Part shown: one piece after another, positions 10,989 to 29,581 of the stretch
How positions within the stretch are numbered: position 1 is the first letter of the stretch
Layout: the number at the start of each line of letters is the position of its first letter
Assembly: GCA_964605665.1 (NCBI GenBank)
Contig: CAZSDP010000003.1
Coordinates: 24,941 to 88,940 of the forward strand
Direction: 5' to 3'
Origin: an uncultured Planctomycetia bacterium
GTDB taxonomy: Bacteria; Planctomycetota; UBA8108; UBA1146
Length of the DNA stretch: 64,000 nt
Made by a program: the position numbers and the translations under genes
The notes under the pieces: generated by a model
Told to the model about the DNA's origin: nothing
Databases searched by the model: none
The model's input: the letters and a program-made list of their open reading frames with translations, nothing else

Positions 10989-11930
10989 ATGTGGACATCA
11001 AAGTACATCGACTCCCATACCCTCGGAGAGCCGACTCGGCTGGTCTTGGAACCTCCCGAAGAACTCCGAGCACTCTCCGCCAAGGCGGGGGCAGAGGCTC
11101 TCACCTCTGAGCTGTTTCCGATCGCGCGTCGAGTGGTCGGCGAACCGCGAACATCCGATGCAGCTGTCGGCGCGTTCTTACTTCCGCCCCAAGACCCTTC
11201 GCACGACCACGCCGTACTCTTTTTCAATGACGTTGGGCCTCTCGCGATGTGTGTTCACGGGCTCATCGGAGTGATGGCGAGTCTTCGCTATCTGGGCGAT
11301 CAGCAGAAGGAGACTCTCCTCTTTGAAACTCCTGCGGGAACGGTTCAAGCCTCTTCCCATGAAGATGGCTCGATCTCCGTGGAAAATGTCCACAGTTATC
11401 GCTCCGCGACTCGCGTTCCGATCATCACTTCGAGTGGTCCCCTACGGGGTGAAATCGCTTGGGGTGGTAACTGGTTCTTCCATCTCGAATCTCCCCTGCC
11501 GATCGAATTAGAAAATCGCCAGTCGTTGCTCGATCTGACTCGGGAGATTCGCGTCGCGCTCGACGAGGGAGCATTGACTGGAGATGACGGCGCCCCCATC
11601 GATCACGTTGGGCTCTTTGAAAAGCCGGTGCGTTCAGAGAGTGGGCTCACCACCAAAAACTTCGTCCTTTGCCCCGGTGGAGCCTTTGACCGATCGCCGT
11701 GTGGAACAGGAACGAGTGCTTGGCTCGCCGCTCGACATGCGGCGGGAGAACTGGAGCCAGGCGAAGTGGTCAGTGTGGAGAGTGTGATCGGTTCTCGCTT
11801 CGACGGCTCGATTCGTCTCGATGAAGCTGGCGCGGTGATTCCCAGCATTCGTGGAGCCGCTCATGTCGTCGCCGAGGGCCAACTGGTCGCAGAAGAGAGC
11901 GACCCTTTTCTCGGTGGTCTACCGAAATAA
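10989..11930 (+). CDS. Proline racemase / 4-hydroxyproline 2-epimerase family protein
   Basis: YIDSHTLGEPTR N-terminal motif. Both catalytic Cys motifs are present (AMCVHG and DRSPCGTGTSA), which implies a racemase/epimerase rather than a dehydratase. The start is taken at MWTSKY; the track ORF begins 45 nt upstream. Confidence 0.75.
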   Translation: MWTSKYIDSHTLGEPTRLVLEPPEELRALSAKAGAEALTSELFPIARRVVGEPRTSDAAVGAFLLPPQDPSHDHAVLFFNDVGPLAMCVHGLIGVMASLRYLGDQQKETLLFETPAGTVQASSHEDGSISVENVHSYRSATRVPIITSSGPLRGEIAWGGNWFFHLESPLPIELENRQSLLDLTREIRVALDEGALTGDDGAPIDHVGLFEKPVRSESGLTTKNFVLCPGGAFDRSPCGTGTSAWLAARHAAGELEPGEVVSVESVIGSRFDGSIRLDEAGAVIPSIRGAAHVVAEGQLVAEESDPFLGGLPK

Positions 11931-12020
11931 GGGCCGATCTTGAAGAACTCCGATCGTCCAAACCCCGAACCGCATCAACAAAACCAGTTGCACCGCGTAC
12001 GGATCAGCATTCGACCGTCG

Positions 12021-14036: not shown

Positions 14037-14938
14037 CGAGCAGCGCTTTCCGCGACGATCGACGCACCGCGACTCTCCCCGACTCTCTGGCTCAACGTGG
14101 ATCTGAAAATTGGCTGAACTGCGTGAAGCTATCGCGTCGTTCGTCAGTCGATCGATTTCAAACGGTCTCTTCAACTGTGGAGCGGGGGCACCTCGAGATG
14201 CCATGAAACGACTCCTGTAGGCCGCCCGAAGGGGCAGCATTCTCCTCATCGATCACTCGAAGGGTGAACCCCAGCACTGGGTCCCATGGCAACCTCGCCA
14301 CGGATCTTCGAAACCGTGAGGTCTCCTCACACGCCTCCCGGTGGATCACCGGCGTCCGATAGAGTGGAAGGGAGCCGAATAGATGGTCGCAGCTCGAAGC
14401 TGGCGCGACGAAGATTTGGTCAGCGGCATTCGGTGGCGGAATGGAAGCACCGCGGATCAAAACCTCGGTTAAGAGACGTCGAAAAACAACATCTAAAAAC
14501 CGCGCTACGATCGCCGCGGGCACATCTGGACCACGACAACCGCTGACAAGTGGGCAGCCTCAATCTTGGACACTGCCTGGACGACCTACTGAACAAACAG
14601 CGAGGGCAAAGGAAATTTCCCCCCAACCCCTCTTGCTCAATGATCTGTTTATTCAAGAAGTCGAGCCGCCACCAATTTAAGTGCAGAGGTGGATGCGGTC
14701 AAGGAGCAAGACAAACCCGCGCCCTGTCGCGCTTCTCGAGAAATCGCGCAGCAATGCTGCCGTCACGAGTGATTCGCTGAGAATCATTGCTCTGAAAAGA
14801 TTGTCGAAGCCCACTCTTTACCGCGTTACATCGCCTCGGAGAGTCGGGGCGAGGTCGAGCCAAACACTCACCGTTCGACTGTGGCGTCCCCCACAATCAT
14901 CGCGCAAGCCTCCCGCCTCGAATGTGGTCAATCTTCGC

Positions 14939-16420
14939 TCAGAAGGGATCCCCCAACTTCCGGGGCCAGCTCTCTGGAGGGGCCTGCGGCTCGGGGTCTC
15001 CACCTGGGCGAATGTGATCGAGAATTCCCGCTGCATCTTGGTCATAGGCGACTCGCCCACCCACCACAGTCCACTGAGGAAGCGTGAGATAATGGAGCAG
15101 ATCCCCATCGGTGATCACGAAGTCAGCGTCTTTTCCGACCTCAATCGACCCCACCCGATGATCGACTCCAAGCAACCTCGCCGCATCCAACGTGATCGCT
15201 TTCACCGCAGCTTCGTCCGGCATCCCGCCACGCACCGCGAACGCCGCTTCGAGTGGTAAGTTGAGAAGATCTCGCCCAGCGAGGCCGGAAAGTGAAATTC
15301 CGCCCCCCGCGGCGAAGAGACTTCCCACGGGGAAGATGGCGAAGGTGACCCCATGGCGATGCAGAATCGATGCATTTTCGATCGAACCGCCGTTCGGTGC
15401 GACTCTGAGATCATTTCGATCACGTCGCGCCCTTGGCGTCAAAACAAGCTGAGCGCCAGAACGCGCGATTTCAGGAGCGACAATCCACCCCTCCTCAGCC
15501 CCCTGGATCACCAGAGCGAAGTCGAAACGTTCCGCCAAAGCACAGATGTCGCGGATCTCCTGAGCTTCCGAAAGACGAATCCACCCCACGACCTTGCGAT
15601 CGATCAATCTCTCCGCGGTGGAGTACAAGCCGCGGATCCACTTACGATCGAGGTCTTTGAGTTCTGGATCTTCCTTCTTCTTTTCTTCGTGCCGTACCAG
15701 CTCCCGTTTGAATTCACGAATCCGCTCGAGAGCTTCTCGAAGCTCCCGTCGTGACGCTGGATTTCTCGTGGAGTATCTCAAGTTCACAAACGAAGTCGTC
15801 CCCAAGTCGATCTCATCGAGAGTGCCGTAGGCGAGTTTGACGATGTTGTTTCCGGTGCGAGCGGTCGTCACTCCCCCCGCCAACGCGAGGAGTAAGTTGA
15901 ACGCATACGGATTGGTCGATTTTGGACTCGAGACGATTCCGGAAGAATCGATCGCAACCAAACCCGGATAGACGTGATGCCCGTCGACCGCCAATGTTTC
16001 ACAATCTGACGGCAGAGGGAGATCGACTCCAATCTCGTGAATGCGACCGTTCTTGCAAAGAATCGTCCCCGCCTCGATCACCCCATCAGAGACGGTGTGG
16101 ATCATTCCTCCCACTACGGCGAACCAACGATCGTCCGGTTCCTCGGCAGATTCTTCCTCGTCGTTCTGCTGTTCCTTCGCTTTCTGCGACGGCTCGCCTG
16201 ACTTGTTCCGGCGTCCTGGGCGTCGTCGCGGACGGGGAGGATCGTCCGCCTCCTCCGATCCCTTTTCCAATGCGGCTTCCACGGCCTCGGGCGACGGTAA
16301 GGGCAAAATCTGAGCGGAAGTGGAGCCCACCGCCGTCAGGAGCAAAAGAATCAGGAGTAGCATCCGATCGCTCCGCCACAAAGCTCGCACAACCTGGGAG
16401 TCTGAACCGATGCCTCTCAT
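14939..16420 (-). CDS. Secreted amidohydrolase-fold protein, paralog 1 of 8 (COG1228-like), with a K/E-rich insert
   Basis: Signal peptide MLLLILLLLTAVGSTSAQ. C-terminal amidohydrolase signature AVKAITLDAARLLGVDHRVGSIEVGKDADFVITDGDLL. The HxH position reads IDSSG and appears lost. The start at MRGIG makes an ATGA overlap with the upstream paralog. Confidence 0.7.
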   Translation of the reverse strand: MRGIGSDSQVVRALWRSDRMLLLILLLLTAVGSTSAQILPLPSPEAVEAALEKGSEEADDPPRPRRRPGRRNKSGEPSQKAKEQQNDEEESAEEPDDRWFAVVGGMIHTVSDGVIEAGTILCKNGRIHEIGVDLPLPSDCETLAVDGHHVYPGLVAIDSSGIVSSPKSTNPYAFNLLLALAGGVTTARTGNNIVKLAYGTLDEIDLGTTSFVNLRYSTRNPASRRELREALERIREFKRELVRHEEKKKEDPELKDLDRKWIRGLYSTAERLIDRKVVGWIRLSEAQEIRDICALAERFDFALVIQGAEEGWIVAPEIARSGAQLVLTPRARRDRNDLRVAPNGGSIENASILHRHGVTFAIFPVGSLFAAGGGISLSGLAGRDLLNLPLEAAFAVRGGMPDEAAVKAITLDAARLLGVDHRVGSIEVGKDADFVITDGDLLHYLTLPQWTVVGGRVAYDQDAAGILDHIRPGGDPEPQAPPESWPRKLGDPF

Positions 16421-17829
16421 CGCCCCTCCTCCCAAACCCACTCACCCGCAATCATCGTTCGTGTCACTCGAGTCGCCGCGGCAAAAGGATCGCCATCGAG
16501 GAAGATGAGATCTGCAGAACGTCCCTTCTCGATCGCACCACACGTCTCCGCAATTCCCAAGAACTGCGCCGGAGCCTCGGTGATCGCCCGGAGAGCAACA
16601 TCTCGGTCGAGACCCTGCCGGATCAAGTCGGCGATTCGGCTCCGCCACCGGGAAAACTCGAGAGCAGAGTCGGAGCTCGGAACGAAGATCACCGTCGCTC
16701 CTGCACGAGACACCTCCGCTGGGAGATGGACGCGACTGACGGTATTGGGCAGATTTGTGATTCTCGGTTGCAAGATCACCGTCGCTCCCCATTCGCCCAG
16801 CGTCGGGAACATTTGACGTTGCTCCAAACGCGAGTTTGGAACGAATTGGATGTTCCGATGCTTCTCGGTCGCCAACTGGGGATATTCCGACACGATCTGT
16901 TCCCAATGTAGAAAGCTCCCGGCGTCGGTCAGTTCGACCATCAGGGAGAGAGAGGTGGAATCTTCACGAAGGATCGAAACCAACGGTTGTAGTTCGTCTG
17001 GAATCTCCGGAGGGACGAATCGAGCAGGCTTCTTCGGAGCCTCCTCACCGGATTCTTTCTCGGCGGACGATCCACTCTCATCCGCCTCAGGAGGAGCAAC
17101 GCCAGGAGGTTTCTTCTCCCCCGCTTCTTTCTTTTGCTTCGCCTCCGCTTTCTTCTTCTCTTCTGCTTGCTTCTTGTCCCACTCCGCTTTCGCCTTCTCT
17201 GCTTTTTCGATCTCCTTTTTTGCCCGATTGAGTCCCTTTTCGAGAGTGCTGCGGTCGCGACTGACCCGGGTCATCGTAATCGGAAGATAGGCATCTTCCC
17301 GCAAGATCACCGTCTCTTTAGCCACCGGAGGACGCACCACTCCGGCACGTCCCAGAATCCCGGAGCCACTCGGAACATACGCAGCAGCGACGATGCCCGC
17401 CCTGAGAAACGCCTCACCGTCGACCCGATCCGCGTCGACCTCGGAGGTCGCACGAAGTTGTCCGAAGACTCCTTGCCTCCGATATGAGGGGAGACCAAAG
17501 CGGGTTCGGGCGACCACGAGACCAGGCATCACCGTTTCTGACCGCGCTGAAATTCTCCGCGCACCGGGAGGGACTTCGAGATTTTGCCCCACCAGAGTGA
17601 TCTCGCCATCCTCGATGACGACCATTCCCGGAGAGTAGTCCTCTCCCGTGACGGTGATCACCCTTCCCGCATCGATCACCACTAAGCGATCCGATTCTGG
17701 AGTCGCCTCGACATTCGTCGACGCGATCAAAAGCACGACGAGGAGCACCCACGGGAGTTGCTCGCTTCTGCGAATCGAGCGCCGGCTAAAAGACACGCTC
17801 CACCTCCGCGTCATAGACCAACTTTCCAT
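16417..17829 (-). CDS. Secreted amidohydrolase-fold protein, paralog 2, with a long Lys/Glu-rich coiled-coil insert
   Basis: Signal peptide LPWVLLVVLLIASTNVEA. Insert KKEIEKAEKAKAEWDKKQAEEKKKAEAKQKKEAGEKK. C-terminal motif ALRAITEAPAQFLGIAETCGAIEKGRSADLIFLDGDPF. No HxH (PGLVVARTRFG). Confidence 0.7.
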   Translation of the reverse strand: MESWSMTRRWSVSFSRRSIRRSEQLPWVLLVVLLIASTNVEATPESDRLVVIDAGRVITVTGEDYSPGMVVIEDGEITLVGQNLEVPPGARRISARSETVMPGLVVARTRFGLPSYRRQGVFGQLRATSEVDADRVDGEAFLRAGIVAAAYVPSGSGILGRAGVVRPPVAKETVILREDAYLPITMTRVSRDRSTLEKGLNRAKKEIEKAEKAKAEWDKKQAEEKKKAEAKQKKEAGEKKPPGVAPPEADESGSSAEKESGEEAPKKPARFVPPEIPDELQPLVSILREDSTSLSLMVELTDAGSFLHWEQIVSEYPQLATEKHRNIQFVPNSRLEQRQMFPTLGEWGATVILQPRITNLPNTVSRVHLPAEVSRAGATVIFVPSSDSALEFSRWRSRIADLIRQGLDRDVALRAITEAPAQFLGIAETCGAIEKGRSADLIFLDGDPFAAATRVTRTMIAGEWVWEEGR

Positions 17830-19051
17830 CGACCACCGTCAAATCGCACCGATTTCGCGGATCGAGAGGATCACCTGACCACAGTCCGAAACTCGCCTCT
17901 TTGCCCACCTCGATCGATCCTTGCTCGGTGAGCATCAGTGACTCCGCCGGAACCTGGGTAATTCCCTTGAGAGCCTCGTAAGGAGTCCAACCGAAGTAAC
18001 AAGCAATCGCCGCTTGAAAGGCCAGCTCCTCTTGCGGAATCACCGGCGCGTCGGTGTTGATGCCGAGATGACGGACGCCACCCTCCCACCAACGAGCTGC
18101 ATTTCCAAAGATCTTGCGCTGGGTTCGATCGAACTGTAACTGCCGGGGACCGTTGATCACTCTCAGCGACTCATCTTCGAGCACCAGCGGAGCGATCTTG
18201 TACCCATCGAAGGTGCAGTGATCGAGAACGGTTCGGATACCGAACTTCCGTGCCAACATATCAACAGTCGTCATCATCACCTGGTAACCCTGAGTGTGAA
18301 CTGAAGCGACAAATTGACGCTCGAAGAGGCCGCGAAACGGCTCGAAGATCGGGTCCGGATCGGGTTTCTCTGCCGACTTCCCTGCTTCGAAATCACTCCA
18401 ACGTCGATGGTATTCGTAGGCTTTCTCGAGGGTCTGACGGGTGTTGAAGTTCATGAAGGAACGACCGGTTCGTCGTCCGCCGAAGAAGTAACTCTCCGGA
18501 TTTCCCGCCTGCGCCACTTTGATCGACCCATAAGGTTTGACCACCGCCTCCTCGACGGTGCCCCCGCCCGTGCGCAGCAAGGTGCCAAACCCCGACATGT
18601 TGTTCCCGCTGCCGGGGATCGTCAGGACGGTCGTCACCCCTGCAGCGCGCGCTCGCTCCATGTTCTTCGATTCAGTGACGATCGACTCCAACGTTCGATA
18701 CCCGGGATTGGTGAGGAATACATAGTCGTGGAGATCGGGTGAACTTCCTCCGGTGTGGTTGTGAGCATCCACCATCCCTGGGACGAGCCAGTGGTGCGGT
18801 CGGTCGATCACCTCTGCCCCGGAGGGGAGATCGATCGTCCCGACCTTCCCGACCGCGGTGATCTGACGCCCCTTCACAATGACGATCGCTCGATTGATCA
18901 CCGTGTCTTTCTCATCCATGGTCAGCACTTTGCCAACCTTGAAGACACGCACCTGATCATCGGCATACACTGGAATGCACAGCATCGACAGGAGCAGCAA
19001 CGCGCAGAATTTCCTGGCCCACCGATGAACGTCGTTCTGATCATAGATCAT
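17786..19051 (-). CDS. Secreted amidohydrolase, paralog 3; the only copy with an intact HxH metal-binding motif
   Basis: Signal peptide FCALLLLSMLCIPVYA. PGMVDAHNHTGG is a canonical amidohydrolase HxH strand. C-terminal motif IEVGKEASFGLWSGDPLD. ATGA overlap with paralog 4. Confidence 0.75.
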   Translation of the reverse strand: MIYDQNDVHRWARKFCALLLLSMLCIPVYADDQVRVFKVGKVLTMDEKDTVINRAIVIVKGRQITAVGKVGTIDLPSGAEVIDRPHHWLVPGMVDAHNHTGGSSPDLHDYVFLTNPGYRTLESIVTESKNMERARAAGVTTVLTIPGSGNNMSGFGTLLRTGGGTVEEAVVKPYGSIKVAQAGNPESYFFGGRRTGRSFMNFNTRQTLEKAYEYHRRWSDFEAGKSAEKPDPDPIFEPFRGLFERQFVASVHTQGYQVMMTTVDMLARKFGIRTVLDHCTFDGYKIAPLVLEDESLRVINGPRQLQFDRTQRKIFGNAARWWEGGVRHLGINTDAPVIPQEELAFQAAIACYFGWTPYEALKGITQVPAESLMLTEQGSIEVGKEASFGLWSGDPLDPRNRCDLTVVDGKLVYDAEVERVF

Positions 19052-21864
19052 CGAGATACCTCTTCTCCGCGAATGAGCACCCGTTCCAATCGCCCTTCAC
19101 CTTGGAAGGGATGGCCACGGAAGATTAAGAGATCACCATCGCAGCCAGGCTCCAGTGAACCGATCCGATCCTCGAGACGGAACATTCGTGCGACATCGGT
19201 CGTCAACGCCGCGATCGCCGCATCCGCTGCCAGACCGTGATCGACCGCATAAAGCGCCCGCATCGGCAAATCGACCGCCCCATCTCCGGCACCACTTTGA
19301 AACGCGATCGAAACCCCATGGCGGGAGAGCACGTCCGCTGGATTGACTCGTCGATCGCGATCCTCGGCCAGCACCTCCATCGGAACGATCACCCCCACTT
19401 GCGACTTGACGAGTTGTTCGACATGACTGAGCGATCCCTGCGCATCGAGCAGAATGAGCGGCAGCTTTTCTCTCTCGACCATCAACTCCAAGGTTCGAGC
19501 GATCTGTTCGCGACCATTCACCCGAATCACGGCAGGGATCTGTTTTTCGAGCAGACGACGTAGAGGCTCCAACGCGGGTTCCACGTTGGGAGGAAGCGGC
19601 CGCCCATCTTCGCGCCCTTTTCTGCGGCGGGTGACCTTGTACTCCACCGCTTCCTTCGAGATTCGGGTCGCCACCAGATCGATGCTAAAGCCCATCACGG
19701 AGATGGTCCCCTCCATCGAGTCTTCTGCGACCAACTCCGCCTCGATCATCGGCGTCGCGGGCAAATCGACGTCCGCTTCGATCGTGCCGCTGATCTTCTT
19801 CCCCTCGAGAGTCGCGACGATGCGGTGCTCGACCGGTACCGGTGGGTCGACGATGCGACCCTCGATCATACTCCCCTTGAGGACCATCGAGATCTTCCCC
19901 GTCTGGGGCTCCGGAAGAGGTCCGCCGCTGGCGGTCCCACTCCAAACTCCGGTGATCGGGTCCTCTTCAGTCTCGACGACCTCTTCGACATCCTCCGCGG
20001 GCTTGACCGTCTCACCCTTGGCTTTCTTCTCCCGCCACTCGGCGAGTTGCTTCTCGTACTTCTGCCACTTCTTGAGATAGTTCTTTGCCTTTGAGAGAGA
20101 GCCCTCGAGCCCGTCGAGAAATGAAATCGGATCTCCATCGACTTCAAACGCGACCGCCGCAACTTCACGAATCAAACGCTCGGAGCGGCGCTCTCCCCAC
20201 GTCTTCACCGCGGCGAAGGGGGATCCTCCCCTGGAGAATCGATAAGGGGAAAGGAGCACCGTGGTGATCCCCGCGCTCGCCACTCGTTCTTCAGGGAGAT
20301 TTGGGACTCCCAAGATCGAACCGAATCGAACATCGAGACCCGCGGCGCCTTGATCACCTCGAAGTCCGAGATGTCCTCGCGCATCGATGAACCCGGGAGT
20401 CACAAATGCGTCCGGTCCCGCGTCGATCACTTTGGCGAAGGGGGGACGTGAGACGGAGTGACCGACGGCGACAACCTCACCATTTTCGATAAGCACTTCT
20501 CCGTCGGTGATGCGCCGTTGAGGAGAAACCCAAATCGTCCCGGCACGAACCACCACTGCCGTCGTGTCCACCCCAGTCGCGGGTGAGGGTCGGAAGACTC
20601 TCTTACCGGCGACGATCACTTCGAGAGGACGGGCACCGAGGGAGAGAGGATCGTCACTCCACAAGACGAGGTCTGCGTCACGGCCTGGCGCAATCGATCC
20701 CACGCGATTTTCGAGCCCGATCGCTCGCGCAGCATTTGAGGTGATCGAGCGCAATGCACTCGAGCGGTCGAGGCCATGGCGATGGGCGAGAATCGCGCTG
20801 AAGCGCAATGCGGTGACGGGGGCGTTCCGAGGAGGGGCAAGAACCAGATCGACACCCTCGCGTCGCAGATGGTTGAAGTCGGGCAGGTCATCGGTCGCAC
20901 CCTCGAATGAGAAGCCGAGGTCCCGAGCAGATCCAGAGAGCCTGACCTGGGGACGATAAATCAGTGGTATCCCCGAATCGGCCAGACTGCTCACGACTCG
21001 CTGCGCCTCACGCCCTCCGACGATTGAGCCGACCCGTTCCTTGCCTCGAATGAATGAGATCGCCGCCAGAAGATCGACGGCGCGCTCGGCGGAGATCCGT
21101 AACGGTCGCTCCGCCTTCCACGCTTCGGCGAGGGCTCGGGGGTGGAGTCCGCCCGCACCCGATCCCTCGAGAGTGGCAGCGAGTTCCTCTTCGATCGCGA
21201 GAAGTCGACCGAGTCGAGTCGCAGGTCTCTGACGCTGCGCCGGCTCAATCGCGACGTCGGAACTGGGAGGGAACGGGAATTCGATCAGCGGTGCCGGTTG
21301 ATCCGCGGGATCTCCGAGTTGAAAACAGAGATCAGAACGGTCGACGATCACTCGCTGCGTCGGTGGTCCCGCCAACTTGACCACGGCACCTTCCCCGCTG
21401 AGGAGTTTGTGTTCACCGGGGGAAACATGCGCAGTGGTCACCCCATGCGCCAGCCACGGTCGGTAGTCACCGTAGCGATCAAATCCATCGACTGCCCGGT
21501 ATCCGGCCCCGACCGATTCCTCTCCACGTCGCGATCCACCGAAGTCGGTCGCGGCGGCAATCAAGCCAGAGGTGAGATATCCATCGGGGAATTCGACCCG
21601 CGGAAGATGCGGGTCCAACGACTCGAGGTCGGTGGTCACCGAAGTGATGACTCCATCGTGGATCACGACTGCGACATGCTCGACTTCAGATTCTGGTCCA
21701 TGGCCGAGAAAGGCGCGTCCCGCGATGATCGCGAAAGAGTCCGCAGCGGAGAGCAGTGCAGGAGAACCTCCCACGCAGAACAGTACGGTGGCGAGCACCA
21801 CCGCCAGAAGCCGAGTCTGTGGTGGGCCACTTCTCAAGTAGAGGGCATCGATCAAGAGAGCCAT
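19048..21864 (-). CDS. Secreted tandem double amidohydrolase-fold protein, paralog 4 (two fused domains)
   Basis: Start chosen at MALLIDALYL, followed by a hydrophobic signal. Domain 1 ends ALRSITSNAARAIGLENRVGSIAPGRDADLVLWSDDPL. Domain 2 has FIDARGHLG (one His only) and a KAKNYLKKWQKYEKQLAEWREKKAKGE insert, and ends IGSLEPGCDGDLLIFRGHPF. The track ORF extends to 21975. Confidence 0.65.
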   Translation of the reverse strand: MALLIDALYLRSGPPQTRLLAVVLATVLFCVGGSPALLSAADSFAIIAGRAFLGHGPESEVEHVAVVIHDGVITSVTTDLESLDPHLPRVEFPDGYLTSGLIAAATDFGGSRRGEESVGAGYRAVDGFDRYGDYRPWLAHGVTTAHVSPGEHKLLSGEGAVVKLAGPPTQRVIVDRSDLCFQLGDPADQPAPLIEFPFPPSSDVAIEPAQRQRPATRLGRLLAIEEELAATLEGSGAGGLHPRALAEAWKAERPLRISAERAVDLLAAISFIRGKERVGSIVGGREAQRVVSSLADSGIPLIYRPQVRLSGSARDLGFSFEGATDDLPDFNHLRREGVDLVLAPPRNAPVTALRFSAILAHRHGLDRSSALRSITSNAARAIGLENRVGSIAPGRDADLVLWSDDPLSLGARPLEVIVAGKRVFRPSPATGVDTTAVVVRAGTIWVSPQRRITDGEVLIENGEVVAVGHSVSRPPFAKVIDAGPDAFVTPGFIDARGHLGLRGDQGAAGLDVRFGSILGVPNLPEERVASAGITTVLLSPYRFSRGGSPFAAVKTWGERRSERLIREVAAVAFEVDGDPISFLDGLEGSLSKAKNYLKKWQKYEKQLAEWREKKAKGETVKPAEDVEEVVETEEDPITGVWSGTASGGPLPEPQTGKISMVLKGSMIEGRIVDPPVPVEHRIVATLEGKKISGTIEADVDLPATPMIEAELVAEDSMEGTISVMGFSIDLVATRISKEAVEYKVTRRRKGREDGRPLPPNVEPALEPLRRLLEKQIPAVIRVNGREQIARTLELMVEREKLPLILLDAQGSLSHVEQLVKSQVGVIVPMEVLAEDRDRRVNPADVLSRHGVSIAFQSGAGDGAVDLPMRALYAVDHGLAADAAIAALTTDVARMFRLEDRIGSLEPGCDGDLLIFRGHPFQGEGRLERVLIRGEEVSR

Positions 21865-21865
21865 C

Positions 21866-23278
21866 TCAGCGGTCCCCCCCCGCTTCTTCTTCTTTTGCCG
21901 TCTCCTCCGACTCTTCGCCCTTCGATTCTTCGGTTTCGGTGGCCTCTCCGTCCTCTTCTTCGTCTCCACTCGCATCTTCCATCAAGTCGAGCAGTTCCCG
22001 CATTCGAGGGTCGCGCTCACGGTCATAAGCGAGAATCCCGTCGATGTAGACCTCTTCCACCCAACTGCCAAAGTCGAGGGGGTCACCGGAAAGCACCACG
22101 ATGTCTCCCCGCTTCCCGACTTCGATCGAACCGATCTCGTCACCGAGTCCGAGCATCTGCGCCGGATGCAACGTGATCGAACGCAGCGCAACCGATCGAG
22201 GGATACCCGCTCTCACGCAACGGGCCGCCTGGTAGGTCAAGAATCTCTCTGGAAGTGAACCATCGGGATGTGGGCGCAAGGCAAACTGAATCTTGGCGTC
22301 ATGGAGAACCTTCGGTACGAAGGTCTCGGTGATCTCACCGGTGAATGGATCTCGGCTTCGATCGACCAACTCGGTGGGACACACGACAGGGCGCCCAGCT
22401 TCTTTCAGTTCCCCCACCGCCCGATGAACATCGGTTCCGATCAACAGCACAGTGCGATCGGTGAGGCCCTGCTCCCGCCCGATCTCAATGGCGGGTGCAA
22501 CATCGGTCGCACTGCCGCAATAGAACCACGGCAACATCGATCCACTCCGTAGGCGATACAGATTGCGATATTGATCATCGAGATCGATGTCTCGGATCAA
22601 TGCTCGCCCTTGTTCTTGAGCCTCACTCGGAGAGACGGTGACCTTCTCGCCTTTTTTCTCTTGCTCTTCCTCGTAGCGTGACTCCGCCAACGTCTCGAGA
22701 TACTGATCTAAGTCGAGGAAGGCTCCCCGCAAATCTGCGAGTTGTTGCATTCGGTCACTCCCCCGCCGAGGAGTCGTCGAAATCTGAATCGCCACCGGTG
22801 CCCGGAGGGTCATTTCGTCGGGAGTACGCCCGATCGGGCGCAGCACTCGGGTCATCGCTCCGATCACGAGATCGTGACTGGGAGAGATGTGCACCGAGGT
22901 GATCCCATTTCGCAGCGTCTCTTCGAAAAAGAGGCGCGACGGATCGATGGCGTCGTAGACATCGAGATAGGGACTCACCGGGACCGCTTCGTTCGGAATG
23001 TCGAGACCACGCCAGTTGAAGGGGTCGATCATCCCCGGAAAGAGGACCTTTCCGGTGCAGTCGATCTCCATCGCATCGTAGGGCAACTCCACTTCCTCGC
23101 CGACCGCCGTGATCCGGCCCTCTTCGATCAAGACCGTTCCCTGAGCGATTTCAGGACCGCTCACGGGAATAATTCGCCCACCGGTCAAAGCGACCTTGTC
23201 ACGAGGTGGCGCTCCCTCCAACGAAGGGTTGCCGAGGAAGAGCGCGAGTAGAAACAGAAGGAGCAGAACAGATCTCAT
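21866..23278 (-). CDS. Secreted amidohydrolase-fold protein, paralog 5
   Basis: Signal peptide MRSVLLLLFLLALFLG; start placed there, the track ORF runs to 23461. PGMIDPFNW at the HxH position (lost). Acidic EEEQEKKGEK insert. C-terminal ALRSITLHPAQMLGLGDEIGSIEVGKRGDIVVLSGDPL. Confidence 0.65.
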   Translation of the reverse strand: MRSVLLLLFLLALFLGNPSLEGAPPRDKVALTGGRIIPVSGPEIAQGTVLIEEGRITAVGEEVELPYDAMEIDCTGKVLFPGMIDPFNWRGLDIPNEAVPVSPYLDVYDAIDPSRLFFEETLRNGITSVHISPSHDLVIGAMTRVLRPIGRTPDEMTLRAPVAIQISTTPRRGSDRMQQLADLRGAFLDLDQYLETLAESRYEEEQEKKGEKVTVSPSEAQEQGRALIRDIDLDDQYRNLYRLRSGSMLPWFYCGSATDVAPAIEIGREQGLTDRTVLLIGTDVHRAVGELKEAGRPVVCPTELVDRSRDPFTGEITETFVPKVLHDAKIQFALRPHPDGSLPERFLTYQAARCVRAGIPRSVALRSITLHPAQMLGLGDEIGSIEVGKRGDIVVLSGDPLDFGSWVEEVYIDGILAYDRERDPRMRELLDLMEDASGDEEEDGEATETEESKGEESEETAKEEEAGGDR

Positions 23279-23364
23279 CGGGTCGTTCTCGTCTCTGTTC
23301 GAAGTCCCACTGACGTGGGGCTCGATGATCGAAAGGCCTCCGAAAAGACCTTCGAACCACCGAA

Positions 23365-24831
23365 TCATCTGGGGGAATCTGGGGAGCGCTCGAAGGAGAG
23401 CTCTCCGTCCACATAAACACGAGCCACTGCAGAGGTCGCCGCGAATGGCGGCCCGGTCCAAATGACCAGATCAGCACGTTTGCCACTCTCGATCGTCCCG
23501 ACTTCTCCGTCGATTCCGAGGATCTTCGCCGGTCTCGATGTCACCAACGCTAAAGCGGTCTCTCGATCGACTCCGAAACGCATCGCCAACATCGCTTGCC
23601 GCCCCAGTCCATCTTCCTCCCGCAAATCTTGGGCACTGAGACAGAGTGGCGCCCCGATCTCAACCAAGTCCCGCAAGGTGTGGAGTCGAGCGCGGCGAGT
23701 TTCTGGTGACCTCGCCGAGAGACCGGTCGGCAAGTCATAGATCGGACCGAAGACGATGGGGACTTGGCGAGTCCCCAGTAGATCGAGGACTCGATATGCT
23801 TCGACCGGATCGACCAAGGTGAACGGCACTCCGAACTCACCGCAAAGGCGGTAGGCACTTTCGATGTCGGAGGAGGTCCTCGCCTGAACCCGAAGAGCGA
23901 TTTCACCATCGATGACCTGATTCAGAACTGCGGATGCTTCTGGACTCGCAGTGTCCGCCCCACTCGGCTGACCTCCACTCGCGCGGAGCATCGCATCGTA
24001 GAACGCCTTGCGGAATATCCACCCCACCCCCATCCGCGACTGGGGACGGCGAGCGAAGTGATTGACTCCGAAACGGCTGGGGGTGCGATTTCTGGTCCCA
24101 AATCGATAGGGATCCGATCCGATCGTCGCCTTGACCGCAGCATTCGCCTCCAGCACTCGATCGACTCCCGCAGTTCGCAAGATCGCACCACGAGCCCCGA
24201 GCACTGCGGATGGATCGGGGGAGGCGTACACCGTAGTGACTCCATCGCGCATCAGTCGTTCGAAATCGGGGGAGCCGAGATCGAGGCCATCGAGGTGGGA
24301 GGTATGGGGAATCACCTCAGAAGACTGTTCGGAGATCGCACTCGGCCCCGACACGCCACTGATGGTCTCATGGTCGTGGTGCGGCTCCGGCTCGAGGCCG
24401 TCGCCCCCGCAGATCGGACAGATCACATCGGGTTCATGACCAGCGGACTCGGGACAGACTCGCGGGTCGTGGAAATGCTGTACCGGCTCCGCGGAAAAAC
24501 CGAAGAGCTCTCGCACCTGAGCGGCCGCCGTCTTGCTGCGAGGCTGCAACAGATTCTCCGGCTCGATCTTCGCATTTGCATCGATCATCCCGGGAGTGAC
24601 CTGGTGGCCCGATAGATCGATCACGGTCGCGCCTTCAGGGATCACCAAGTCAGCCCCGACCGCGACAATGCGTCCGTCTCGAATCTGGATGATCCCATTC
24701 TCGATCGAACGTCCATCGCCACAGTGCACAAGATCGCTACGAAGAAACAGATCTGCGGCGAAACTCGGCAATGGTAAGAAGACCATCAAGACGAGCAACG
24801 TCGCTCGAAGGTGAGTAAAACTCTTCATCAT
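23365..24831 (-). CDS. Secreted amidohydrolase-fold protein, paralog 6
   Basis: Signal peptide LLVLMVFLPLPSFA. PGMIDANAKIEP (HxH lost). C-terminal ALALVTSRPAKILGIDGEVGTIESGKRADLVIWTGPPF. ATGA overlap with paralog 7. Confidence 0.7.
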   Translation of the reverse strand: MMKSFTHLRATLLVLMVFLPLPSFAADLFLRSDLVHCGDGRSIENGIIQIRDGRIVAVGADLVIPEGATVIDLSGHQVTPGMIDANAKIEPENLLQPRSKTAAAQVRELFGFSAEPVQHFHDPRVCPESAGHEPDVICPICGGDGLEPEPHHDHETISGVSGPSAISEQSSEVIPHTSHLDGLDLGSPDFERLMRDGVTTVYASPDPSAVLGARGAILRTAGVDRVLEANAAVKATIGSDPYRFGTRNRTPSRFGVNHFARRPQSRMGVGWIFRKAFYDAMLRASGGQPSGADTASPEASAVLNQVIDGEIALRVQARTSSDIESAYRLCGEFGVPFTLVDPVEAYRVLDLLGTRQVPIVFGPIYDLPTGLSARSPETRRARLHTLRDLVEIGAPLCLSAQDLREEDGLGRQAMLAMRFGVDRETALALVTSRPAKILGIDGEVGTIESGKRADLVIWTGPPFAATSAVARVYVDGELSFERSPDSPR

Positions 24832-26036
24832 CGTTGAGCCTCCTCGTCAGGAATCACGTCACTGGAGTGAGGCGATCGTATCACCACTTCCTGACCATTC
24901 TGAAACACCCGCATCACCTCGCTTCGACTCAACAGTGGATCTCCATCAAAGATCACTAAGTCGGCTCGGTAACCGGCACCGATCGCTCCGATCTGCTCTT
25001 CCAAACCGACGCACCGTGCTGCGTTGATCGTCATCGCGCGCCGCGCCGCCGCGGGATCGAGGCCGTGGGCCACCGCGCGTCGGGCGGAACCGCGCAATGA
25101 ATCAGGGCCGGCGATCGGCATATCACCTCGAAGAGCCAACTCGAACCCCGCGCGCGCCAATGCGGAAGCACCGCGAAGTTCCGCCGCCGAGGTGATCGTG
25201 GTGAAAGGGCCCACCACGATCACGCCTTCCGGGCCCCCGCCCACTTCGACCAGCAGTCGCGCCGCGTCGCTCCCTCCGGAGGCGAGAACGAGAGTCGGGC
25301 GCTGTCGATCGAGAATCGGCATGAACATCTCAGCAGCAGTGCGGACATCCATCGCTTCGCTGCAATGAATCATCGGGGCCGCCACTCCATCGCGAAGGTT
25401 CGCCTGGAGCAGTGCTGTCCCCTCCATCTTGAGCCAGCGGCGGAGTGCACTCTCCAGGCCAGATCGGCTAGTCGGTTCCCGATTGGCATCGAGAGCGCTC
25501 TCCCCGACCGCGAAGACGAGAGGGCCTTCCCGTTCGATGACCGGCTGGAGTTGGGAACGGGCTCCGGTCGCGAAGGTCACCGCCCGACCGCTCAACGGCC
25601 GATTGGGAGTGGGAGCCACGGTCGCATAGAGAACGCCCGCCCTGCGGGAACGATCGAGATCGGGGCGCAGTGGATCGATCGCAGCGGCTGCGTTCGCCTG
25701 CGGATCGAATGCGATCGCTTCTTCGGAGTGCTCGCCGGGCGCACCGACACTACTGAGGAGTTCGTGCAGTCCGGGAATCAGCACCGTGCCACTGCCAAAG
25801 TGATGTTGTGGCTCAGGCAAGTCCGCCGTATCCACCGGAACAACGCGTTCGATGTTTCCATCCTCGGTGATCACCACAGCGAGCCCGGGAGCGAGGGTCC
25901 CGTCGGCACGTTGGGTCCATTCAGCGATCAGGGTTCTCGCATCATCTGCAACGAGGAAGATGCCGGGGGAAAAGAGTACCCCCACGGTGAGCAGACCGAG
26001 GAAGAACCACTGCAGTGGTTTCGGCGGAGACATCAT
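24828..26036 (-). CDS. Secreted amidohydrolase-fold protein, paralog 7 (shorter, 402 aa)
   Basis: Signal/TM WFFLGLLTVGVLFSPGIFLVA. C-terminal ARRAMTINAARCVGLEEQIGAIGAGYRADLVIFDGDPL. ATGA overlap with paralog 8. Confidence 0.65.
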   Translation of the reverse strand: MMSPPKPLQWFFLGLLTVGVLFSPGIFLVADDARTLIAEWTQRADGTLAPGLAVVITEDGNIERVVPVDTADLPEPQHHFGSGTVLIPGLHELLSSVGAPGEHSEEAIAFDPQANAAAAIDPLRPDLDRSRRAGVLYATVAPTPNRPLSGRAVTFATGARSQLQPVIEREGPLVFAVGESALDANREPTSRSGLESALRRWLKMEGTALLQANLRDGVAAPMIHCSEAMDVRTAAEMFMPILDRQRPTLVLASGGSDAARLLVEVGGGPEGVIVVGPFTTITSAAELRGASALARAGFELALRGDMPIAGPDSLRGSARRAVAHGLDPAAARRAMTINAARCVGLEEQIGAIGAGYRADLVIFDGDPLLSRSEVMRVFQNGQEVVIRSPHSSDVIPDEEAQR

Positions 26037-27469
26037 AGTTCCTCCTCCTCAGCGGGCGTCGACGCACTCGACGGCTCGATCGTATTCTGAAAAACGGTCT
26101 TCCCGGCGACCAACACCCGATCGACCCGGGCGGATGGATCGGAGGTGGGGTCTGCAGTCCAGATCACCAAATCCGCGGGAGCTCCGCGACCGAGGCGTCC
26201 TTGCCGTCGACTCAACTGGAGAAACTGGATCGAATCTCGAGTCAACATCTGGACGACGTCGCGATCGGACCCACGGGCGACTCGCCCCGCCTCATCCCAG
26301 AGTTCCTGCACCACTGGACCTGGCCCGAAGTACCAGGAGATACCCGCTCGATCGAGCTCCGCCGCCAAATGCTCCGATCGGCGCCAGGTCCTCGCGCGCT
26401 CTGCCCGCTCTCCATCGGATGCGGGCTCCAAGAGCACCGTGACATCTTCCTCGGAAAGATGATCGAGAACGAGATGGGCTTCACTCCCCCCGACTAAGAC
26501 CCAGTCGAGATCGTGCTTCTTTGCCAATGCGATCGCATTGAAGATATCGGCGCTTCGGTGAGCCTCGATTCTGACCGGGATCTGCCGATCGATCGCTCTC
26601 AGGATCATCTCGAGGTCGGGGCGCACCTTCGGTGGCTTCGGCTTCTTCGGACCATCTTTATCGGAGTCCTTCTTCGACGTGGACTTCCCACCACCCGATC
26701 CCTTCGCGCCTTTGAGCTCTCGACGATCGCCGTCTTTTCCTTCTCCGGACTCACTCTCACCCGCCTGCTCATCCTCAACTTTGGCGAGTTCTTCGAGGTA
26801 CTTCTCCAGATCCTCCTCGTACTGATCGAGAGACTCTCGATAATCGATCGCCCTCTCGAACTGCTTCTCGATCGTCCGCAGCGTCTTCAGACGGCTCAAT
26901 GTCGGCTGAGATGAGCCGAGATCGATACAGAGTGCCGCTTCCTCGGCGAGGGGCACTCCGATCCCGCCCGCTTCTCGAGGAGCCAACCTCACCACGGTAG
27001 AGGTACCCAAAATTCCACTGGCGCCGCTCGGAACGAGACAAACCGTGGTGACTCCCGCCGCGTATGCGGCATTCACCGCATCTCGATCGTAGCGATCGAA
27101 GCCATCCCAAGCGTGGAAGTTTGGAGAAGCGCGGCGGGTGCGATCGAGAGCGAGCTGCGAACTGCAAGCGATCCAACCGGTGGTCACCGTTCCTCCCTTG
27201 CCATCGATCGTTCTCGACAGGAGAGGCTTCGCCGCTTCCGGCCCGAGTTCGACGATCTGTCCCCCGCGGATCACGATGCGGGCGTTCTCCACCGAGCGAG
27301 AATCGGACAAGAGCAGGGTCACGTTTTCGATCACGGTCGATCGCTGGAAGAGTTGCGCCTCGAGTTTTCTCGGGGCGGTGACGACAGCAGCGAGGATGAG
27401 GATGATCAGGCCGGCCTGGTAGACTCGACCGATCGTCGCAATCATATTCAGGGTTTCATCCCTTCCCAT
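26033..27469 (-). CDS. Secreted amidohydrolase-fold protein, paralog 8, with a long acidic/Lys-rich insert
   Basis: Signal LIILILAAVVTAPRKLEA. Insert DQYEEDLEKYLEELAKVEDEQAGESESGEGKDGDRRELKGAKGSGGGKSTSKKDSDKDGPKKPKPPK. C-terminal motif GRGAPADLVIWTADPT. This is the first gene of the array. Confidence 0.65.
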   Translation of the reverse strand: MGRDETLNMIATIGRVYQAGLIILILAAVVTAPRKLEAQLFQRSTVIENVTLLLSDSRSVENARIVIRGGQIVELGPEAAKPLLSRTIDGKGGTVTTGWIACSSQLALDRTRRASPNFHAWDGFDRYDRDAVNAAYAAGVTTVCLVPSGASGILGTSTVVRLAPREAGGIGVPLAEEAALCIDLGSSQPTLSRLKTLRTIEKQFERAIDYRESLDQYEEDLEKYLEELAKVEDEQAGESESGEGKDGDRRELKGAKGSGGGKSTSKKDSDKDGPKKPKPPKVRPDLEMILRAIDRQIPVRIEAHRSADIFNAIALAKKHDLDWVLVGGSEAHLVLDHLSEEDVTVLLEPASDGERAERARTWRRSEHLAAELDRAGISWYFGPGPVVQELWDEAGRVARGSDRDVVQMLTRDSIQFLQLSRRQGRLGRGAPADLVIWTADPTSDPSARVDRVLVAGKTVFQNTIEPSSASTPAEEEEL

Positions 27470-27905
27470 CCTCGATCGGACTCCCCGTCACCTGCCCCAT
27501 CTACGCTGGGTGGGCAACGGACGAGGCCTGGCCCCATCGCGAAAACGAAGCGCGTACCGGCCAAATGAGGATCGTAGATACGGTGCAGAACTTCCCGGCG
27601 GCGAGTTTTCCCCAACAGCCGATTCCCCCGGCTGGCCACCGAACCCCCACAAGATAGCGCCAGAGTCTTTCTACTGCGAGACTTCCGTCAAAAGCGGGCC
27701 CGAATTCGACCCGCGATCTTCTTCTCGACCGCCCCCTCTCCGACCGCCGACAGGGGGGGCCACGAGAGAGCGGGCGAGCGGCTCACCGCGAAGAGGATCC
27801 GGAATCATCATCACCTCACTCGCAATCGGCGCCGGATCGGGCAATATGTGACTCGAATCGGGGAGTGACGTTCGCCGGAAAAGCGTCAGCCCACTCAGGA
27901 AGGAT

Positions 27906-28865
27906 ATGCGGAGCATGATTCAAAATTCGGGAAGTCATCGGACCGGTAGCGGAAACGAGTCACCAGGAGCCCGTGACTTGAGCGCTCTGGACGGAGAGTT
28001 TCGGGTCAAGGTGGGCCTCGCAGAGATGTTGCGAGGTGGGGTCATCATGGACGTCACCGATTCCGAGCAAGCGCGCATCGCCGAAGAGGCGGGAGCGGTG
28101 GCGGTGATGGCGCTGGAGAGAGTCCCCGCCGATATTCGTAAAGAGGGTGGAATCGCGCGGATGTCACCGGTCGACAAGGTCGAGGAGATCAAGAGCGCGG
28201 TCACGATCCCGGTGATGGCGAAGGCTCGGATCGGGCACTTCGTCGAAGCGCAGATTCTGGAAGCGCTCGAAGTCGACTTCATCGATGAGAGCGAAGTGCT
28301 GACGCCAGCAGATCACCATTTCCACATCGAAAAGAGAGCCTTCAAAGTCCCCTTCGTCTGCGGAGCGACCTGTCTCGCCGAAGCGCTCCGGAGAATTGGC
28401 GAAGGCGCCGCGATGATCCGAACCAAAGGGGAAGCGGGGACCGGTGACATCGTCGAAGGGGTCCGCCATCTCCGCGAAGTCCAACGAGAGATTCGCGTAT
28501 TGACCCAACTTCCTCACGAAGAGTTGATGACCGCCGCAAAAGAGATGGGAGCGCCCTACGATCTGGTCGAGATGGTCGCCTCCACCGGTCGTCTGCCGGT
28601 GCCGAACTTCGCCGCCGGAGGCATTGCGACCCCCGCGGACGCAGCACTGGCGATGCGGCTCGGAGCGGAAGCGGTCTTCGTTGGCAGCGGAATCTTCAAG
28701 TCGCAAGATCCGGGACGAACGGCTCGCGCGATCGTTCATGCGACGGCGCATTTCGAAGACCCTGCGTCTTTGGTCGAAGCGTCGCGCGGGATCGGAACGC
28801 CGATGATCGGAGTCGATGCCAGTACGCTCCCTGAGGAGGAGCGACTGCAAGAGCGCGGCTGGTAG
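27906..28865 (+). CDS. pdxS: Pyridoxal 5'-phosphate synthase lyase subunit PdxS
   Basis: The core matches the conserved PdxS/SNZ sequence ([14 protein letters not shown]...[19 protein letters not shown]...[14 protein letters not shown]...[29 protein letters not shown]). SD-like AGGAAGGA upstream. A start at 27915 is also possible. Confidence 0.9.
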
Positions 28866-28879
28866 GCGGGCGGAACACG

Positions 28880-29581
28880 ATGGCGTTCAGGTCTGCACTG
28901 CGAGGGGTCGATCGCGTCGAACCGGTCGGGGTCCTCGCTCTACAGGGATCGGTGGAACCGCACCGCCGCGCCCTTGCCGACCTCGGAGTCGACTCGGTGG
29001 AGGTCCGCCATCGAGAGGATTTGCGTCAGGTTGAACGTCTCATTCTCCCAGGCGGAGAAAGCTCCACTCTTTGGCGCCTACTCCGACGATTTCAACTGTG
29101 GGATGAGATCGGAGAGCGAGCGAGAGCGGATGAGCTCTCGATCTTCGGCACCTGCGCGGGTGCGATTCTGCTCGGGCAGAGCGACACCGACGACCCGCCC
29201 CCGCGACTCGACCTGATCGACGTCGAAGTACGAAGAAATGCCTACGGCCGGCAAGTCGCCAGCTTCGTCGGTCCCCTACAGTACTGCGAGCAGTCATTCC
29301 CCCTCGATTCGAACGCGTCAGATTCGAATCAGGGCGAGGGCGTTTTCATACGGGCGCCCCGGTTCCGATCGATTCCCGAGGAGGTCAAGATTCTCGCGCA
29401 ACTCGACGGTGAACCGGTCGCCATCGAGCAGGGACGGATGATGGCGATCGCATTTCATCCCGAATTAACGCGCGATCGTCGCCTCTATCAGCGCTGGCTC
29501 CAACTCCCATCACAGGGCGCCAACGCTGAGAAAAACCGGGTAGAGAGCGACCTTCGGTCGACGCGGCATCCCGGATCGTGA
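28880..29581 (+). CDS. pdxT: Pyridoxal 5'-phosphate synthase glutaminase subunit PdxT
   Basis: VGVLALQGS...LILPGGESST...FGTCAGAILL (catalytic Cys) ...AFHPELT (His) is the class I glutamine amidotransferase PdxT/SNO pattern. It lies immediately downstream of pdxS. Confidence 0.85.
   Translation: MAFRSALRGVDRVEPVGVLALQGSVEPHRRALADLGVDSVEVRHREDLRQVERLILPGGESSTLWRLLRRFQLWDEIGERARADELSIFGTCAGAILLGQSDTDDPPPRLDLIDVEVRRNAYGRQVASFVGPLQYCEQSFPLDSNASDSNQGEGVFIRAPRFRSIPEEVKILAQLDGEPVAIEQGRMMAIAFHPELTRDRRLYQRWLQLPSQGANAEKNRVESDLRSTRHPGS

Follow-up and report, generated by a model that had tools for sequence, protein, structure and literature searches.

A Conserved Planctomycetota Operon of Eight Amidohydrolase-Fold Proteins with One Intact Metal Site: A Candidate Exported Hetero-Oligomeric Hydrolase

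Introduction

Why would a bacterium maintain eight consecutive genes for related amidohydrolase-fold proteins when only one of the products has a complete metal site? This question is raised by the minus strand of positions 14939-27469 in a 64,000-nucleotide stretch of DNA (the window; contig CAZSDP010000003.1, positions 24,941 to 88,940, assembly GCA_964605665.1) from an uncultured Planctomycetia bacterium. Eight long open reading frames (ORFs), and no other of comparable length, were found there, where a first-pass annotation made from the letters of the sequence had placed eight genes. Its numbering, P1 to P8, is kept here; the genes are transcribed in the order P8 to P1. Two domains, 4A and 4B, are fused in P4, and the operon encodes nine domains in all.

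The answer reached here has two parts. One active and eight inactive domains are very probably co-expressed and selected. The whole is best explained as a hetero-oligomeric hydrolase that is exported and in which one domain is catalytic and the other eight are scaffolding, which we consider probable; within this explanation, export, the assembly with its stoichiometry, and the substrate class are steps that we infer.

One Intact and Eight Degenerate Metal Sites

The binuclear ligand set of P3 consists of H97 and H99 (the HxH of strand 1), K178 (strand 4), H252 (strand 5), H278 (strand 6) and D334 (strand 8), and it was invariant in 26/26 orthologs. The codons, whose coordinates were confirmed by translation, lie on the minus strand at 18761-18763, 18755-18757, 18518-18520, 18296-18298, 18218-18220 and 18050-18052, respectively. 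The same six positions were read in the other domains from the alignment to the P3 family. They are D, S, N, R, gap and gap in P1; R, R, P, E, I and S in P2; A, D, C, S, gap and G in 4A; R, H, A, R, D and G in 4B; F, W, Q, Y, I and P in P5; N, K, K, Q, D and gap in P6; L, S, V, H, G and D in P7; and S, Q, C, E, G and Q in P8. Each non-P3 domain of the window thus retains between zero and two of the six ligands. In P4, the assigned ligand positions coincide with predicted barrel strands of an AlphaFold2 model. The first-pass annotation had recognized the metal-binding strand DAHNH in P3 only, and the strings that it read at the equivalent place in the others (IDSSG, VARTRF, DFGGS/DARGH, DPFNW, DANAK, LHELL and IACSS) were confirmed to align to it. 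Its concern that most paralogs might prove to keep a full ligand set was not borne out, since the full set was found in P3 only, and its picture of one enzyme with pseudoenzyme domains is well supported for P3 and the other eight by the 26/26 conservation on one side and the variable substitutes on the other.

The substitutes at all six positions differ among orthologs of the same non-P3 paralog. Because the ligand positions vary in this way within each paralog, it appears that no alternative conserved catalytic constellation took the place of the lost metal site. Remnants of the site were nevertheless found among the orthologs. In 4B, the second His is kept in 20/21 orthologs and the full HxH in 5/21, the copy of the window not being among these five; since the canonical HxH survives in this minority, the loss of the metal site in 4B is recent and partial. 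In P5, 11/18 orthologs have the first His and 15/18 the Lys, and the Lys of P6 survives in 10/16. Such remnants show descent from active enzymes.

The same observations bear on a reading in which the degenerate domains would still be enzymes, non-canonical and possibly metal-independent, and the operon a battery of hydrolases with differing specificities. Metal-independent members of the amidohydrolase superfamily exist, such as LigI, and both the remnants in 4B, P5 and P6 and the strong purifying selection on all eight genes (see below) could be taken in favor of retained activity. However, the substitutes vary among orthologs at every ligand position, and in every genome examined, the non-P3 domains have at most about four of the six ligands. 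Moreover, the strand-8 Asp, which known metal-independent members retain, was conserved in 0/8 of the degenerate domains, the best case being 4B with 10/21. We regard such a battery as very unlikely.

Fold and Family Placement

All eight proteins reached the Pfam gathering score for both PF01979 and PF07969, P8 barely so for PF01979 (25.1 against a cut-off of 25; 33.5 bits for PF07969). These matches span only the C-terminal ~60 residues of each protein, and the C-terminal amidohydrolase signature already noticed in all eight lies within this segment. NCBIfam matches add N-terminal parts, with every score far under the family cut-off. As Pfam and NCBIfam alone leave the barrel core unproven, ortholog families of each paralog were gathered from related loci and each was compared with the P3 family by profile (hhalign). 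All of the other domains were full-length homologs of P3 at a probability of 100% over 356-400 aligned columns (386, 384, 400, 390 and 368 columns for P8, P7, P6, P2 and P1, respectively), in agreement with the nine amidohydrolase-fold domains first proposed.

The closest solved relative of all domains tested was PDB entry 3OOQ, an uncharacterized structural-genomics protein of Thermotoga maritima MSB8. Catalytic P3 matched it over the full length with E = 1.9e-33 (next match 3e-12), and non-catalytic P5 likewise with E = 1.3e-35 (next match 1e-11). An AlphaFold2 model of P4, computed with 118 homologs, had a pLDDT of 91.1 and a pTM of 0.79, the latter being an overall figure and not one for the 4A-4B interface. 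The model predicts two complete domains, each with a (beta/alpha)8 barrel and a composite beta-sandwich formed from the N- and C-terminal segments. Its best Foldseek match was again 3OOQ (target-normalized TM-score 0.83, E = 9e-25), while every other solved amidohydrolase gave a TM-score of at most 0.59. On the strength of the full-length 3OOQ matches and this TM-score, the nine domains belong to a distinct 3OOQ-like branch that has no curated family, and not to the characterized cog1228 peptidases or to HutI.

Named families were considered and set aside. The Caulobacter-type Xaa-Pro dipeptidase model NF051886 ranked first among the NCBIfam matches of P2, P3, P6 and P7 and within the first two or three of P1, P4 and P5; its best score was 68.4 bits (P3), with 15.8-65.5 bits for the others, against a cut-off of 500. 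Imidazolonepropionase HutI (TIGR01224) gave at most 50.4 bits against a cut-off of 298, and the NCBIfam dihydroorotase models were also far under their cut-offs. No NCBIfam model reached its curated threshold for any of the eight proteins. Database names read only "amidohydrolase family protein" or "imidazolonepropionase-like amidohydrolase", the latter being a generic label.

Operon Structure, Conservation and Selection

Gene starts were picked from the Shine-Dalgarno context and the position of the hydrophobic N-terminal segment. In the order of transcription, P8 occupies 26033..27445 (470 amino acids (aa), with an alternative start at 27469; signal-peptide-like N-terminus at 27356-27445), P7 24828..26036 (402 aa; 25947-26036) and P6 23365..24831 (488 aa; 24757-24831). 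P5 extends over 21866..23278 and encodes 470 aa with an acidic C-terminal tail when read from the ATG at 23278, which sits immediately before its signal-peptide-like segment (23213-23278); an alternative ATG lies at 23368. P4 (19048..21864, 938 aa) begins with a signal-peptide-like segment at 21745-21864, followed by 4A at 20575-21744 and 4B at 19051-20556. P3 (17786..19051, 421 aa; 18962-19051) precedes P2 (16417..17796, 459 aa; 17704-17796), whose GTG start at 17796 has the Shine-Dalgarno sequence GGAGGTGGAG and two alternatives, 17814 and 17829. P1 (14939..16420, 493 aa) closes the operon; its signal-peptide-like N-terminus (16313-16420) leads into a charged low-complexity linker. A promoter and terminator scan gave nothing above the shuffled background, and Rfam had 0 matches in 12000-29000.

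ATGA overlaps join P8/P7, P7/P6, P4/P3 and P2/P1 in the window, and P5 and P4 are separated by a gap of 1 nt. The P6/P5 junction depends on the start of P5, with an ATGA overlap for 23368 and an 86-nt gap for 23278, and P3/P2 overlap by 11-44 nt depending on the start of P2. Of the six tight junctions counted at first, five are thus certain and the sixth hinges on the P5 start, P3/P2 being a longer overlap. Across operons, the 4-nt overlap was kept at P8/P7 in 13/19, at P7/P6 in 14/19, at P4/P3 in 18/25 and at P2/P1 in 16/22 cases; at P5/P4, it was found in 10/23 operons, with three further 1-nt overlaps. P6/P5 and P3/P2 are usually separated by gaps of 20-130 nt. From the overlaps conserved within blocks and the gaps at these two junctions, the operon consists of three translationally coupled blocks, [P8 P7 P6], [P5 P4 P3] and [P2 P1]. 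Tight co-translation, which had been proposed from six junctions, thus holds within the blocks and does not usually extend across P6/P5 and P3/P2.

Each paralog of the window has its own 1:1 ortholog in about 20 Planctomycetota species, and the order P8-P7-P6-P5-P4-P3-P2-P1 was identical in these wherever the contig was long enough; no gene had been lost from the array wherever the contig permits a check. The array is therefore strictly syntenic in relatives; the scattering that the first-pass annotation had named as a counter-argument was not observed. Identity to orthologs was about 55-60% for P3, 55% for P5, 47% for P1, 44% for P6, 43% for P4, 38% for P2 and 34% for P7 and P8. More than 350 full-length homologs of the fused P4 were found at 40-63% identity, and at least about 100 full-length representatives of 50%-identity clusters were present among the best 150 matches of a P4 profile search. 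The named P4 homologs all come from Planctomycetota metagenome-assembled genomes (MAGs), mostly labelled Phycisphaerae or Phycisphaerales; all named matches are MAGs, and no cultured carrier of the operon was among the matches listed. The nearest named relatives carry the name "MAG: Planctomycetota bacterium". No conserved gene family flanks the eight genes, the only extra "families" being antisense shadow ORFs.

The ratio of nonsynonymous to synonymous substitutions (dN/dS) was measured against a relative about 90% identical in protein sequence. It was 0.07-0.19 for all eight genes, with 0.077, 0.17, 0.071, 0.082, 0.071, 0.19 and 0.13 for P1, P2, P3, P5, P6, P7 and P8, respectively; the neighboring genes pdxS and pdxT gave 0.054 and 0.22. 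All eight genes are under purifying selection, and P1, P5 and P6 are constrained as strongly as catalytic P3.

An all-against-all profile comparison of the nine families was star-like, the paralogs being about equally distant from each other, and it showed no alternating A/B pattern. In one lineage (L020), P3 is present as four tandem copies, all with the full HHKHHD set, at 13039-18504 of MAG contig CAZEFP010000002.1, while the rest of the array is unremarkable. Four such copies suggest that a shared scaffold allows the catalytic subunit to diversify.

Fusions and Simpler Relatives

The two different non-catalytic domains 4A and 4B were fused in every P4 ortholog. Three further loci encode three-domain amidohydrolase polypeptides of 1262-1343 aa (L076 4759-8790, L077 3556-7344 and L078 220-4206). 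Proteins P0395 (1343 aa, GCA_027295725.1) and P0386 (1262 aa, JGI metagenome) have three domains in the slots of P8, P7 and P6. The first two domains of P0395 gave best profiles of P8 (256 bits) and P7 (194 bits), and the other domains of P0395 and P0386 were assigned by position, without a clear best profile score. Directly after both proteins comes a clear P5 ortholog (389 and 393 bits, respectively) and then a P4 ortholog. The positions of the coupled block [P8 P7 P6] are thus occupied by one polypeptide in two other lineages (L076 and L077), which is classical evidence of the Rosetta-stone type for physical association. The three-domain protein of L078 is a different case, a pseudo-active-pseudo fusion with a signal-peptide-like N-terminus that marks it as secreted.

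Simpler arrays were found in five other phyla. These secreted arrays always have one domain with a full or near-full ligand set and one or two degenerate domains. An active HHKHHD domain and a degenerate domain occur together in L026 (Vulcanimicrobiales) and L033 (Pseudomonadota), and also in L032, another planctomycete; L029 (Bryobacteraceae) has three genes for a degenerate, an active (HHKHQD) and a degenerate domain. A degenerate-active fusion with an additional degenerate domain is present in L027 (Bacteroidota) and in L031 and L034 (Opitutales/Puniceicoccaceae), and P0393 holds degenerate, active and degenerate domains in a single polypeptide. In the multi-domain arrays examined, all members had signal-peptide-like N-termini by the heuristic used below; in L032, the signal-like evidence is an internal hydrophobic stretch of the degenerate member only. 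The Clostridia (L025, L028 and L030) have a single copy with a complete or near-complete ligand set and without a signal-peptide-like N-terminus. The pairing of one active secreted domain with dead paralogs is a general habit of the 3OOQ-like branch. Profile comparison related no outside-phylum domain specifically to any one planctomycete paralog, so the nine-fold expansion is particular to Planctomycetota; for the same reason, orthology of the colinear pseudo-active fusions of Opitutales and Bacteroidota to P4 was not supportable.

These findings have to be set against the possibility that the eight genes encode co-regulated but independent exported proteins. P3 would then act alone or as a homo-oligomer, and the eight degenerate domains would be separate non-catalytic proteins outside any common complex, for example, binders of ligands or peptides that reuse the old substrate pocket. 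The paralogs are indeed ancient and equally distant, the two junctions P6/P5 and P3/P2 are usually uncoupled, every product has its own signal-peptide-like N-terminus, and L020 multiplies P3 alone. However, the gene order is fixed in about 20 species without losses, the 4A-4B and P8-P7-P6 fusions favor association, other phyla repeatedly combine one active domain with degenerate ones, as pairs or as fusions, and the nearest solved relative, 3OOQ, is a large homo-oligomer. Independent proteins are, in our judgment, improbable, though a good deal less so than the battery of enzymes considered above.

Export Signals

All eight N-termini have a positive stretch, a hydrophobic core of at least 12 residues and an AxA-like site by a pattern heuristic, with cleavage sites such as STSA|Q, NVEA|T, VYA|D, SFA|A and LVA|D. 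Comparable hydrophobic cores were present in most orthologs of each paralog. The signal peptides first noted on all eight products were thus recovered on re-analysis with this heuristic, and they recur in orthologs. No conserved lipobox or Tat motif was seen in the N-termini of the paralogs and orthologs, and no membrane anchor was found in the operon products. Export of all eight products is predicted from these N-termini.

Uniform export would also suit a structural element of the planctomycetal envelope, that is, a periplasmic or surface lattice of amidohydrolase-fold bricks in which the activity of P3 would be accessory, e.g., in maturation. Eight of the nine domains are non-catalytic yet strongly conserved, and P1, P2, P5 and P8 carry charged low-complexity linkers or tails, both of which could fit a lattice. 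Against it, the operon lacks a membrane anchor and a lipobox, as stated, and no conserved envelope partner gene was found; in addition, phyla with ordinary envelopes have simpler versions of two or three domains, which always contain a domain with full or near-full ligands. Since the simpler arrays always include such a domain, an enzyme-centered function is preferred, and an envelope lattice is, at most, a slight chance.

Proposed Assembly and Substrate

In the explanation that we favor, the eight genes form one operon, and its products would reach the periplasm by means of Sec signal peptides, to join there in a hetero-oligomeric amidohydrolase. The sole catalytic subunit would be P3, with a binuclear metal center of HxH, a presumably carboxylated Lys, two more His and an Asp. 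P1, P2, 4A, 4B, P5, P6, P7 and P8 would occupy fixed, non-interchangeable structural positions without metal, and these eight dead domains may surround, gate or scaffold the one active site or bring substrate to it. The set would have arisen by repeated duplication of a 3OOQ-like enzyme, followed by decay of the catalytic residues in every copy but one. The 3OOQ entry holds 10 chains, and it is labelled dihedral in a benchmark of complexes with 10-30 chains (bioRxiv 10.64898/2026.08.06.736029). Given a relative that is dihedral and has at least 10 chains, an origin from a large homo-oligomer is plausible.

Physical hetero-oligomerization, at least of the fused or coupled sets, is likely on the sequence evidence. 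The conserved coupling, the purifying selection, the 4A-4B fusion, the P8-P7-P6 fusion and the fusions of active with inactive domains lend it support short of proof. A tentative extension, which we would not assume, places all nine domains in one periplasmic particle with fixed, non-equivalent positions. This would be a pseudo-symmetric ring or cage derived from a dihedral homo-oligomer, with P3 enclosed or gated by eight pseudoenzyme positions and with assembly ordered by the blocks [P8 P7 P6], [P5 P4 P3] and [P2 P1]. An arrangement of five dimers (P3-P3, 4A-4B and three hetero-pairs) is pure speculation.

Several points weigh against the proposed hetero-oligomer. Physical association is deduced from genes alone, and the signal peptides rest on hydrophobicity and cleavage-site pattern only. 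The usual gaps at P6/P5 and P3/P2 mean that a fixed stoichiometry is not enforced operon-wide, and the equal distances among paralogs yield no pairing rule from sequence. The nine domains do not map simply onto the ten positions of a D5 decamer, and L020, with four active P3 copies, fits a fixed 1:8 particle poorly. The hints on the substrate, given next, are anecdotal and weak.

The substrate would probably be a peptide or another amide available in the periplasm, a weak suggestion drawn from the family relationship, from protease genes beside two simpler arrays and from a transporter in one relative. The nearest curated model is the Caulobacter Xaa-Pro dipeptidase, far under its cut-off. An S9 prolyl oligopeptidase (7795-9876) is encoded 23 nt upstream of the active/inactive pair of L026, and an HtrA-like protease (8205-9497) upstream of that of L032. 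L075, a relative with a P4 63% identical to that of the window, has a PTR2/POT peptide transporter (19539-20966) close to the operon. A peptide in particular is a doubtful choice.

If the products do assemble, they would be among the most paralog-rich bacterial enzyme complexes known, with nine positions, one fold and one active site. Other phyla would then preserve intermediate stages (one copy in the cytoplasm, secreted pairs of an active and an inactive domain, triples, and fusions), and this series would make the transition from a homo-oligomer to an obligate hetero-oligomer with dead subunits directly testable, together with the question of whether constructive neutral evolution or adaptation drives dead subunits. 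It would also give a first functional handle on the uncharacterized 3OOQ-like branch.

Comparison with Known Systems

P3 has the same HxH/K/H/H/D ligands as 3OOQ and the same helical excursion between strands 4 and 5. However, 3OOQ is a single cytoplasmic protein that forms a homo-oligomer and has no signal peptide (the alignment starts at chain residue 10), whereas the operon encodes nine different domains with export signals, in eight of which the metal site is lost. As 3OOQ itself is of uncharacterized function, it offers no substrate.

The cog1228 set comprises the Caulobacter Arg/Lys carboxypeptidase Cc2672 (3MTW), the Xaa-Pro dipeptidases Sgx9260b/c (3FEQ, 3N2C and 3MKV) and HutI. These enzymes share with the operon products the superfamily, the beta-sandwich formed from N- and C-terminal segments and the C-terminal motif; several PDB entries of the group hold at least eight chains, and some cog1228 amidohydrolases are exported. 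They differ in profile scores far below the cut-offs and in the low TM-scores to the P4 model given above. We know of no cog1228 enzyme with inactive paralogous partners.

An inactive amidohydrolase-fold protein serving as an obligatory structural subunit has a precedent in the dodecamer of aspartate transcarbamoylase (ATCase) and pseudo-dihydroorotase of Pseudomonas aeruginosa (PMC7053772). There, the pseudo-dihydroorotase is a single type of pseudo-subunit that is cytoplasmic and joins an unrelated partner, ATCase, at 6:6. In the operon, by contrast, the partners would be paralogs of the active subunit, exported, and spread over eight distinct non-catalytic positions. No pyrB-like or transcarbamoylase gene was found in or next to the operon, and the ATCase complex serves as an analogy only.

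Hetero-oligomers built from paralogs with partly or wholly inactive subunits include the eukaryotic 20S proteasome, CCT/TRiC, the Exo9 exosome core and the TldD/TldE pair. Paralog numbers of this order are rare in bacteria but typical of eukaryotes. The logic of the proteasome, CCT and the exosome would be alike, in that a duplicated homo-oligomer gave rise to fixed paralogous positions and catalysis was lost in most of them. Unlike the operon, which is known from genes alone, these complexes and TldD/TldE have been physically demonstrated, and their folds are unrelated. The single particle, should it exist, would give bacteria an extracytoplasmic equivalent of such machines (proteasome, CCT and exosome core); it would be widespread in uncultured Planctomycetota, with two- and three-domain precursors in other phyla.

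A full-text literature search returned nothing on the operon or on heteromers of active and inactive amidohydrolases except ATCase-pseudo-dihydroorotase. The judgment of the first-pass annotation that the architecture lies outside any described system stands, as no paper, curated family or annotation describing it was found. The amidohydrolase superfamily and the precedent for an inactive subunit are known; the nine-domain operon and the active/inactive heteromer habit of the branch would be new. A conserved and strongly selected, putatively periplasmic system of Planctomycetota has been hidden behind eight identical labels of "amidohydrolase family protein", and it occurs so far in MAGs only, many of them labelled Phycisphaerae.

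Inserts and Accessory Domains

In P1, P2, 4B, P5 and P8, the Lys/Glu-rich segment sits between barrel strands 4 and 5. A helical excursion occupies this position in P3 and 3OOQ as well. In P2 and P8, low-complexity charged sequence makes the excursion longer, and that of P2 is long and rich in Lys, Glu and Ala. The inserts first described as coiled-coil-like are thus real, but they are an expanded, family-typical helical excursion together with low-complexity charged linkers.

The excursion of 4B contains an eight-stranded up-and-down beta-barrel of the avidin/calycin-like type (19630..19968, minus strand; P4 residues 633-745), preceded by a 32-residue helix (20020-20115). This beta-barrel opens with an invariant D-x3-G-x-W. 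L077, a lineage with the P8-P7-P6 fusion, has a P4 ortholog that lacks the barrel.

P6 has an insert of ~65 residues after barrel strand 1, with cysteines at 24409-24456 (residues ~125-141) in the motif C...C-P-x-C-G, often with CC-G ahead. Three to five of the motif cysteines were conserved in 13/16 orthologs, whereas L002 and L007 lack the motif. For an exported protein, a zinc knuckle and a disulfide knot are both conceivable.

Genomic Surroundings

On its upstream side, the operon borders on the divergent pdxS/pdxT genes (27906-29581). On the downstream side, a gap of 690 nt separates it from an FG-GAP repeat gene (12021-14249, minus strand, 742 aa), which has the same place in no relatives but the two closest (L073 and L075) and is therefore probably outside the conserved unit. 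Beyond it, a PD-(D/E)XK nuclease protein (955 aa) and a UvrD-type helicase (1141 aa) form an AddAB-like pair on the plus strand of 4865-11930, with a gene of the proline racemase/hydroxyproline epimerase family after the pair (10944-11930, plus strand). No tRNA genes were found in the window, and two long ORFs, 47079-48461 (460 aa) and 55115-57505 (796 aa), had no Pfam match. The housekeeping context includes a molybdopterin oxidoreductase with a 4Fe-4S/NrfD partner (108-4629, minus strand), FeoB (40975-42957, plus strand), the transhydrogenase beta subunit PntB (53477-55030, plus strand) and a class I tRNA synthetase with DUF5915 (59135-62506, minus strand).

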